Notes under the pieces: generated by a model
What the model was told of the DNA's origin: nothing
Databases searched by the model: none
Seen by the model: only the letters and a program-made list of their open reading frames with translations
Position numbers and translations under genes: made by a program
Shown: positions 19,899 to 21,263 of the stretch, piece after piece
Position numbering within the stretch: the first letter of the stretch is position 1
How the letters are laid out: every line of letters starts with the position of its first letter
Source: an uncultured delta proteobacterium
Lineage (GTDB): Bacteria > Desulfobacterota > Syntrophorhabdia > Syntrophorhabdales > WCHB1-27
Assembly (NCBI GenBank): GCA_963810935.1
Contig: CAWEPK010000008.1
Location: forward strand, 736,001-800,000
Direction of reading: 5' to 3'
Length of the DNA stretch: 64,000 nucleotides

Positions 19899-20095
19899 CT
19901 AAAGCGACGCAAAACCCTTCGGTGCCATGAGGTCCCGACCGGGCCTGCAAAAGCTCTCTTACCGTCGGCTTCAAGGGACGCGTGCCCCAGTTCTTCCTGG
20001 CGGTCTGCCGATTCGAGCATCCACCGGCCGCAATAATAAAGCAAGCGTATGCGCCGCGCCGAGCGGGGAGCAACTGTGTTCGATGTCAAGAGATT

Positions 20096-21019
20096 TCATC
20101 GGACGCACCAGGAGGTATTGGTTCTGACCATGGCATTCAGTATGACGAGAAGTTTTCTCATGCAGGCGGTTATTGCAACCTTGGGGAGCTTGCCGGCATG
20201 AACGAGACGTTCGTAAAAGGTTTTGATTACCATATTGTGACGGATCGCGGTGAGGGCCGCCATGTATAGCGCCGATCTGACATCCGCCCTGCCCCCGAAG
20301 ATCGTCCGTTTCCCCCGGTATTTGCCGCTGTCCCGGTTAAACGGGGCCAGGCCTGCTAAAGCGCTGATCTTCTTTCGGTTGAGTTGTCCTAGTTCGGGCA
20401 GCCGTGCAAGGAGCATGGAAGCGTTTACGGGGCCTATCCCCTTGACGCTTCTCAGAAGGTTCTCCTTTTCTCTCCATAAGGGGCTCTTCCTGATAAAAGA
20501 GGCGATATCCTTGTCTAGTTTACCGATGCATTCTTTTAACCACTCTATGTGGGCCTCTATATCGGGTCTCATCCAGTCCGGGGTGGTTTCCAGGCGGTTT
20601 CTCTCCATGGCAACCATCTCGACAAGCTGTCTTCTCCTTGCGACGAGGGTCTGGAGCCGATTGGCGTCCTTATCCTTCAGAGCCCTCGCTTCCGGCCTTA
20701 TGACCTCCCCGAAGCGGGCTATCATCTCCGCGTCTATACTATCCGTCTTGGCCAGCCTTCCCGTTGCTTTAGCGAAGTCCCTTACCTGCCTGGGATTGAT
20801 TACGACTATGGGAAGGTTGCGCAGCGCAAGAGTCTCCACGACGGGGACCTGGTATCCTCCTGTCGCTTCCAGCACTATGAGCTTCGGACGCACATCCGAT
20901 AGAAAGCGGGCGAGATCCTTTCGCCCCTCATCATTGTTTGGGAAGCTCTTTTTGATATCCGGTGTCACGAATATTTCCAAAGTCTCCTTTGCCACGTCTA
21001 TGCCTGCGAACTTTTCCAT
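20096..21019 (-). CDS. IS110-family DEDD recombinase/transposase
   Basis: GIDVAK, LEATG, KTDSIDA (RuvC DEDD) and LAPFNRDSG (catalytic Ser loop); AAGGAGG RBS. Confidence 0.97.
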
Positions 21020-21024
21020 ATATT

Positions 21025-21200
21025 GCCCCTCCTTGCGAAATGCGGGCTTCATAGCCCAAGCAACTGTCCGAGCTTGTATGGAATGGGGTGTGACGACCCT
21101 TGCTCCCCGCCGGGATCATGGTCCCAGAGGCTCATCGGTCTGTCACACCCTGATGCACGGAAAGACCATTATAACCATAAATCAGGGTATGGGAGAACAT
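21025..21200 (-). ncRNA. Putative IS110 bridge RNA (boundaries approximate)
   Basis: Internal-loop segments match the insertion target (GCGGGGAG; GAGCCT) and the element's circle junction (ACAGTTGCTTG). Confidence 0.8.
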
Positions 21201-21216
21201 GGATATAAGATACAAG

Positions 21217-21263
21217 GCTCCGCGAGCTTCGCCCGTGGAGGGGGCGCTGAGCCCCAATAATTG
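21217..21263 (-). repeat. REP-like copy F, right half (left half at 20038-20070)
   Basis: GCTCCGCGAGCTTCGCCCGTGGAGGGGGCGCTGAGCCCCAATAATTG. Confidence 0.85.

Follow-up and report, generated by a model that had tools for sequence, protein, structure and literature searches.

An IS621-like insertion sequence of an uncultured delta proteobacterium that very probably selects its site in a REP-like repeat by means of a bridge RNA

IS621 of Escherichia coli belongs to the IS110 group of insertion sequences and uses a bridge RNA (Durrant et al. 2024, PMC11208160; Hiraizumi et al. 2024, PMC11208158). As described in the former paper (PMC11208160), the left guides of this RNA carry the top-strand sense of the left flank plus the core, the right guides are antisense to the core plus the right flank, and all four guides read the core. 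The latter (PMC11208158) describes the roles of the catalytic residues and reports that handshake bases located 3' of the right guides pair with position 7 of the partner DNA. A second IS110-group element, ISPpu10 of Pseudomonas putida, is described in a preprint (10.64898/2026.03.19.712850) as targeting the repetitive extragenic palindromic (REP) sequences of its host, and the structure of a third protein, deposited as 'ISCro4 transposase' (PDB 9t56), has been solved. Here these systems were compared with an element, designated ISA, that lies in a stretch of 64,000 nucleotides (nt) from an uncultured delta proteobacterium (assembly GCA_963810935.1, contig CAWEPK010000008.1, positions 736,001 to 800,000). 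This whole stretch is referred to as the window, and coordinates are those of the window unless stated otherwise. We consider it very probable that ISA is an intact, IS621-like insertion sequence of the IS110 group that chooses its insertion site by a bridge RNA derived from its own left end.

The limits of ISA were obtained by comparison of the filled site with an intact copy of the host repeat. On the plus strand the two junctions of the filled site read GAGCGGGGAG / CAACTGTG and GATACAAG / GCTCCGCG, and an uninterrupted copy of the repeat at 60240-60269 contains GAGCGGGGAGGCTCCGCG. Because the filled site could be set against this intact repeat, the element was delimited to 20071-21216 on the minus strand, a length of 1146 bp with one copy of the CT core counted, with a single AG/CT at each junction; the limits 20069-21214 are equivalent, and the inclusive core-to-core length is 1148 bp. 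ISA had no terminal inverted repeats, and the dinucleotide AG (CT on the element strand) was present at 20069-20070 and 21215-21216. When rejoined, the flanks restored the intact repeat sequence, a 'scarless' arrangement in which the 2-bp core is common to donor and target. In element orientation the target read GCGGAGC-CT-CCCCGC and the joined ends of the element read ACAGTTG-CT-TGTAT. A first-pass annotation of the window, made from the sequence without database searches, had proposed a 1146-bp element splitting a repeat at an AG/CT core; the junction sequences agreed with that proposal, its target and donor junction were both read as written, and all of the strings that it quoted were found where it had placed them. 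Its statement that the empty site survives intact at 60241-60268 held only in that an unoccupied copy is present there, since this copy is a paralog from a repeat with approximately 158 copies and not the pre-insertion allele. The parts of the element and of the repeat that it interrupts are as follows.

20071 to 21216, minus strand: the whole insertion sequence ISA, delimited by comparison of filled and unoccupied repeats.
20071 to 20095, minus strand: right end, 25 nt, with the left donor ACAGTTG (20071-20077) and a TTGACA -35 box (20084-20089).
20096 to 21019, minus strand: recombinase gene, 307 amino acids, start MEKFAGIDV behind AGGAGG, identified from Pfam, NCBIfam and PDB matches.
21020 to 21216, minus strand: left end, 197 nt, non-coding, with the bridge RNA, a -10 box TATCTT (21207-21212), the right donor TGTAT (21210-21214) and the core (21215-21216).
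20033 to 20070, plus strand: left half of the interrupted repeat, which in element orientation is the right-target side, CT-CCCCGCTCGGCG (nhmmer match 20033-20076, model positions 6-49).
21217 to 21263, plus strand: right half of the interrupted repeat, which in element orientation is the left-target side (nhmmer match 21215-21261, model positions 42-88).

The recombinase gene is contained in a minus-strand open reading frame (ORF) that spans 20096-21052. Its most likely start was at 21019; the longer ORF from 21052 is not needed, because ISB, a sibling element in the same genome, has a GTG start at the codon of 21019. The ISA protein matched PF01548 (1.4e-23) and PF02371 (1.7e-19), both over the curated Pfam cut-offs, and scored 229 bits against the NCBIfam model NF033542, 'IS110 family RNA-guided transposase', for which the cut-off is 140. 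The only PDB matches were ISCro4 (9t56, E 3.8e-42, residues 4-299), which was the best match among solved structures and is a likeness at the protein level only, and IS621 (8wt6, E 2.7e-40). When aligned with chain 8wt6, whose numbering is the native numbering +2, residues D8, E51, D93, D96 and S231-G232 of ISA corresponded to D11, E60, D102, D105 and S241-G242 of IS621. On the basis of both Pfam domains, the NF033542 match and all five IS621 catalytic residues, ISA is assigned to the IS110 group of the IS110 family. A scan of genome contigs found relatives of the recombinase at 34 loci; their metagenome-assembled genomes (MAGs) were labelled Anaerolineae, Dehalococcoidia, delta-proteobacteria, cyanobacteria and others, and no relative in the genome of another species exceeded 54% identity over the full length of the protein.

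To examine the left end, the upstream DNA of 18 of these 34 loci was aligned with that of ISA and ISB, and 16 rows were kept for the RNA alignment (A2); L008 (the same as L007), L012 (cut at its 5' end), L028 (a long insert) and L030 (the same element as L019) were left out. RNAalifold analysis of the 16 left ends revealed two modules, each composed of a stem, an internal loop and a hairpin. In the first, a 9-bp outer stem and a 4-bp GACC/GGUC stem led to an internal loop that was closed by a 4-bp hairpin; in the second, which follows a linker, the stem and the hairpin were of 3 bp each, again with an internal loop between them. Compensatory changes, with both sides altered, were observed in 20 of the 23 pairs of the consensus structure. 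Overall, 91.3% of the cells were paired, compared to 38-53% when the partners were slid by 1-3 columns, and the observed covariation score was not reached in any of 500 column shuffles. A covariance model was then built from the 14 distant relatives only, with both ISA and ISB excluded. It matched ISA over its full length (100 bits, E 7e-25, model positions 1-134 of 134), and this match fell in the 197-nt left end, not the 25-nt right end; the siblings scored 91-103 bits, and a search of the whole genome returned only ISA and the three complete copies of ISB. The comparison with a bridge-RNA covariance model that the first-pass annotation had proposed was therefore positive, and its placement of the guides in loops was upheld, since the internal loops of the covariation-supported consensus structure hold them. 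The features of the RNA, all on the minus strand, are listed below.

21023 to 21155: bridge RNA core, the full-length covariance-model match.
21086 to 21150: target-binding loop module, from the alignment, the consensus fold and the guide matches.
21142-21150 with 21086-21094: outer stem of the target module, GGGUGUGAC/GUCACACCC.
21128-21136: left target guide GAUGAGCCU, of which the pairing part is GAGCCU (21128-21133).
21112-21125: inner hairpin of the target module.
21103-21110: right target guide GCGGGGAG.
21100-21102: handshake CAA of the target module, placed by the handshake rule of PMC11208158.
21026 to 21072: donor-binding loop module, from the alignment and the consensus fold.
21070-21072 with 21026-21028: outer stem of the donor module, CUC with GGG.
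21059-21067: left donor guide ACAGUUGCU, within the donor-matching string ACAGUUGCUUG (21057-21067).
21044-21057: inner hairpin of the donor module.
21032-21035: right donor guide CAAG, within GCAAG (21032-21036).
21031: handshake G of the donor module.

The guides corresponded to the DNA on both sides of the element and to its own ends. The left target guide GAUGAGCCU matched GCGGAGC-CT at seven of nine positions, core included, and the last six matches were contiguous, as had been noted in the first-pass annotation; the right target guide GCGGGGAG was the exact antisense of CT-CCCCGC, that is, the reverse complement of the core plus the right target, again as first described. With the core matched on both sides, ISA scored 4/6 (left) and 6/6 (right) at the non-core positions of its own target. 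In the donor loop, ACAGUUGCU equalled the terminus of the ISA right end plus the core, which bears out the donor match reported for ACAGUUGCUUG and its position, and CAAG was antisense to CT-TG. In 20,000 mononucleotide shuffles of the 197-nt left end, GCGGGGAG was present by chance at a frequency of 0.003, ACAGTTGCT at 0.0009, ATACAAG at 0.008 and GAGCCT at 0.05; CAAG is uninformative when taken alone, since it occurred at a frequency of 0.48. A second string, AUACAAGC (21072-21079), had also been put forward as complementary to the donor. Its position was correct, but a guide role is improbable because it lies in the unpaired linker and has no counterpart in the 14 distant relatives; it is probably not a guide, and the right donor guide is instead CAAG, in the 3' strand of the donor loop.

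Handshake bases were also present. The CAA after the right target guide complements the donor TTG, and the G after CAAG complements C7 of the target; ISB retained only the first base. In alignment column 57 the base was C in 14 of the 16 rows and U in the other two, L021, in which the donor ends in A, and L014, in which a G-U pair results.

The correspondence between guides and flanks extended to the relatives. Nine guide sets had both flanks readable (L013 was left unscored because the end of its contig cuts the right flank), and own and cross pairs alike were scored in whichever of two left-guide registers gave more matches. Across the 12 non-core positions the numbers of own-target matches were 10, 11, 10, 9, 4, 9, 12, 9 and 9 (mean 9.2), compared to a mean of 3.6 and a maximum of 8 for the 72 cross pairs, and the observed sum of own matches was reached in none of 100,000 permutations. 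In 13 of the 20 rows examined, the right end repeated the 7-mer of the donor loop beyond the end of the gene, and among these were rows with a variant 7-mer (ACGGTTG, ACAATCG or ATGGATA). In the two relatives in which the right donor starts with AG instead of TG (left end CT-AG), the right donor guide was CUAG instead of CAAG.

The element that matched its flanks at 12/12 non-core positions was L018, from a MAG labelled Myxococcales. It lies inside an array of GCGGACTGAAGTCCGC hairpin repeats (locus positions ~1-110 and 1257-1290), and a second right-end fragment of the same element was located ~70 bp upstream of its left end, a layout that suggests tandem or nested insertions.

The sibling and orthologous copies provided natural controls. 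ISB had 78% DNA identity and 81% protein identity to ISA and was present as three full copies and one that is truncated by the end of a contig. Its ends and its donor loop were identical to those of ISA; in the target loop, by comparison, GAGCCUC of ISA was replaced by UCCCCCU and GGGAG-CAA by CCGAG-CGC, with GCGCCGAG in place of the right target guide GCGGGGAG. All three full ISB copies were inserted at CTCCCCC-CT-CGGCGC, and the truncated fourth copy had the same right flank. This site is the next CT of the same repeat, 7 bp from the ISA core, as the ISB guides predict. In a sister genome (G002), an ISA ortholog with 91% identity and identical guides was located at GGCGAGC-CT-CCC, which is the same position in the repeat. 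Its flank matched, at 90%, positions 318158-319541 of contig C8 of genome G000, ~438 kb from the place of ISA, where G000 has unoccupied repeats; the ortholog therefore stands at another locus, and the lineage moved after the genomes diverged. Another sibling in G002, L044 (75% identity), was inserted outside this repeat family at a site that its own guides match at 8/9 and 8/8. Other copies thus occupied guide-matching sites, a comparison that the first-pass annotation had proposed, and every sequence-level prediction of the bridge-RNA reading that could be tested here was borne out.

Several observations weigh against this reading. The left target guide of ISA pairs over just six contiguous bases, and its core-binding CU is displaced 5' by one alignment column relative to ISB and most relatives, an unexplained shift. 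The register would be recovered if the core were read as TC, but the observed junctions contradict this. The own-flank match of L011 was only 4/12, the right junction of L032 read TC and its right guide was mismatched to the flank, and the right end was not found in seven of the 20 rows (L006, L007, L008, L016, L017, L020 and L028). In the sibling L041 (71% identity, genome G008), the right target matched at 8/8 and the left target was mismatched. A stable or shared 5' stem-loop before the target loop was unsupported in the four siblings (z-scores of -0.81, 0.28, 0.65 and 1.74) and was drawn by the minimum free energy (MFE) fold of the whole left end for ISA only. When ISA was folded as a single sequence, its MFE structure had the two target guides partly paired with each other, as expected given that both contain the core. 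A search of 19900-21400 with the curated Rfam families, in E-value mode, gave no match at threshold. Two further points, the single copy of ISA in its genome and the RNA contigs, are taken up below.

With respect to L041, its left flank (contig C30 of G008) reads GACTCC-TGCTG-CT, and its guide GACUCCCCU predicts GACTCCC-CT; the junction has the look of a minor rearrangement, or of slippage within a CTG repeat. The only Rfam match on the region, below threshold, was sX15 (RF02234), a Xanthomonas small RNA that also has many copies in Stenotrophomonas. It matched the plus strand at 21006-21161, antisense to the bridge RNA, with 20 bits against a gathering threshold of 55 (E 1.4), and was judged to be a chance match; it is regarded as spurious since sX15 adjoins an IS3-family transposase on pXCV183.

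It could be argued that ISA is a true IS110 element with a bridge RNA but is now resident and effectively immobile, so that the match between guides and target records a past insertion. We regard this as unlikely. ISA was found once in the genome despite the presence of 23 perfect 12-bp sites (21-23 perfect free sites), and a promoter scan of the integrated DNA found none. Contigs from two metatranscriptome runs (X5 and X10) included none over the bridge-RNA region (20997-21167), a result that comes from contigs only and is uninformative on expression; one 237-nt contig from an RNA run lay within the recombinase gene and may be DNA carry-over. Against immobility, the ORF is full length with all of the catalytic residues, the 91% ortholog occupies another locus in the sister genome, and both halves of a junction promoter are intact. 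Joining of the ends in a circle would bring together TTGACA (20084-20089) and TATCTT (21207-21212) across a 17-nt spacer, which gives a putative sigma-70 promoter with 10/12 consensus matches that exists only across the right-left junction. A TTGAC-type box was also seen, unscored, at the same distance from the end in the printed right-end sequences of relatives. Finally, one low-depth contig of run X2 (record 15, depth 2.8) joined the unique flank 19968-20060 to 21237-21313 via 29 letters that contain an intact GCGGGGAGGCTC, which hints at an empty allele in a related strain. Most other 'joints' at 20068/21215 were rejected as signs of excision, their sides being just 23-36 nt long and representing other copies of the repeat.

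A minus-strand TATAAT was also present at 21168-21173, within GGTTATAATGG, ~15-20 nt upstream of the target-loop stem. The same alignment columns of L002, L041 and L044 hold a -10-like hexamer (TATAAT in ISA and L044, TATACT in ISB and L041), so that it is kept in all four siblings though the remainder of the 5' region differs; a -35 box was not found for it. This hexamer might act as a weak internal promoter, from which an integrated copy could express its bridge RNA.

An iterated nhmmer search of the 4.06-Mb assembly returned 158 copies of the repeat into which ISA is inserted, and in 90 cases the match covered nearly all of the 88 model positions. The 12 bp specified by the ISA guides, GAGC-CT-CCCCGC, occurred 23 times in the genome, compared to 1.6 occurrences expected from composition, and 21 of these were within repeat matches; the ISB 12-mer occurred six times, always inside repeats. 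Hairpins were visible in the repeat consensus, and 84 of the 158 repeat midpoints fell inside stop-to-stop ORFs of at least 150 codons, a smaller share than the 92% of genome bases that lie in such ORFs, although this is a crude test. By these properties the repeat is REP-like: short, present in many copies, hairpin-forming and mostly outside genes. The positions of both insertion sites in the unoccupied copy are as follows.

60215 to 60300, plus strand: unoccupied paralogous copy of the repeat (nhmmer).
60248-60259: the 12-bp ISA site GCGGGGAGGCTC, with the AG core at 60254-60255.
60247-60248: the AG core used by ISB, 7 bp from the ISA core.

A second alternative is that the recombinase reads the hairpin structure of the repeat and that the RNA complementarity is secondary or coincidental, which we consider very unlikely. 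The left target of ISA, GCGGAGC, forms the 3' arm of the 10-bp hairpin of the repeat, and the short contiguous pairing of the left guide would be in keeping with recognition by other means. ISPpu10 is similar in this respect: its CT core lies in a REP sequence, its left target is an arm of a GC-rich stem-loop 5' of the core, and the preprint (10.64898/2026.03.19.712850) reports a gain in specificity from a target stem-loop that includes the left target. According to the same source, however, structure in ISPpu10 acts on top of pairing and not in its place. The ISB protein is 81% identical to that of ISA, but its insertions lie 7 bp farther from the hairpin, just where its changed guides predict, and so outside it, which sets this pair apart from ISPpu10; L044 lies outside the repeat family altogether and still matches its own guides; and the permutation test on the nine guide sets speaks for pairing. 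The hairpin also differs from that of ISPpu10 in having an A-C mismatch on the element top strand, which is a G-T wobble on the other strand, and the DNA fold of the unoccupied repeat had a z-score of -1.9 with an MFE structure that differs from the simple hairpin.

The idea that the structured left end is a 5' untranslated region that controls translation of the recombinase, and not a guide, is highly improbable. The 3' strand of the donor module overlaps the ribosome-binding site AGGAGG (21028-21033), so that folding of the left end could mask this site, but covariation with the neighbouring host DNA and with the far end of the element would not be expected of a leader whose only role is regulation, and the leader and guide roles are compatible with each other.

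Wherever two adjacent repeats were separated by less than 300 bp, they had the same orientation (29 of 29 pairs genome-wide) and formed tandem direct arrays, in contrast to the convergent pairs described for P. putida in the ISPpu10 preprint; examples in the window are 11528-11584 with 11668-11724 and 21215-21261 with 21347-21403. Searches for Y1 transposases (PF01797) gave nine matches at seven loci, four of which had a copy of the repeat within 1 kb. A divergent, apparently split Y1 gene at G000 C16:101391-101748 had repeats of opposite orientation on both sides, an arrangement that resembles that of REP-associated tyrosine transposases (RAYTs). Among the Y1 genes (L050-L057) there were five near-identical copies, and on that account they look more like an IS200/IS605 element.

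Returning to the bridge-RNA reading, a mechanism can be proposed in which transcription, binding of the RNA by the protein, circle formation and chemistry are taken over by analogy from IS621. ISA would excise as a circle, and the joining of its right and left ends would create the promoter TTGACA-N17-TATCTT. Transcription of the left end from this junction promoter would yield an RNA that has two internal loops. In one of these, the target loop, the sequence GAGCCU, which is the sense of the left target plus the core, would pair with the bottom strand, and the two target guides would jointly specify GAGC-CT-CCCCGC; in the donor loop, ACAGUUGCU and CAAG would read the joined ends of the element itself. 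A tetramer of the recombinase, using its DEDD and Ser residues, would then exchange strands at the shared CT.

The resemblance to IS621, as that element is described in the two published papers, was extensive. Both have the same two protein domains and the catalytic D/E/D/D/S residues, a CT core and a REP-type target, and a long left end and a short right end, each of which holds one half of a sigma-70 promoter (putative in ISA) that becomes complete at the right-left junction. The order of the loops, target before donor, is also shared, as are the polarity of the guides (left sense, right antisense), a right donor guide of 4 nt (CAAG in ISA) and a handshake base after each right guide. There were also differences. 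The protein matched the IS621 chain at only E 2.7e-40, and the right target guide of ISA is 8 nt in length compared to 4 nt in IS621 (G77-G80; PMC11208158). Left target pairing in ISA covers 6 contiguous nt in a 9-nt window, the 5' stem-loop is unsupported, and the target is another repeat family in an uncultured soil or peat organism.

The first-pass annotation had described ISA as a new natural bridge recombinase. That it is a natural IS110 bridge-recombinase system is supported by the covariance model, the placement of the guides in loops and the sites of the sibling and orthologous copies. It is new as a further IS110 example, but its kind is known: under standard annotation the protein would already come out as an RNA-guided IS110 transposase, in line with the name of NF033542, and the picture of the IS110 mechanism is unchanged. 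What it adds is a natural bridge-recombinase system, well supported and from an uncultured bacterium of soil or peat. Such wider interest as it has lies in a built-in natural control, ISB, whose different guides go together with an insertion shifted by 7 bp in the same repeat; the ISA/ISB pair lends itself readily to guide swaps and to determining how short the left target guide can be and which register it needs. We suggest, tentatively and with the balance of judgement on the side of doubt, that ISA and ISB form a natural retargeting pair on adjacent CT cores 7 bp apart that differ essentially only in their target-loop guides, the left-guide CU of ISA having slipped by one base from the inner hairpin. 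If this is true, the target loop would tolerate a frame shift of the left guide that lies outside the published IS621 design rules, and guides could evolve by 'walking' along a repeat.

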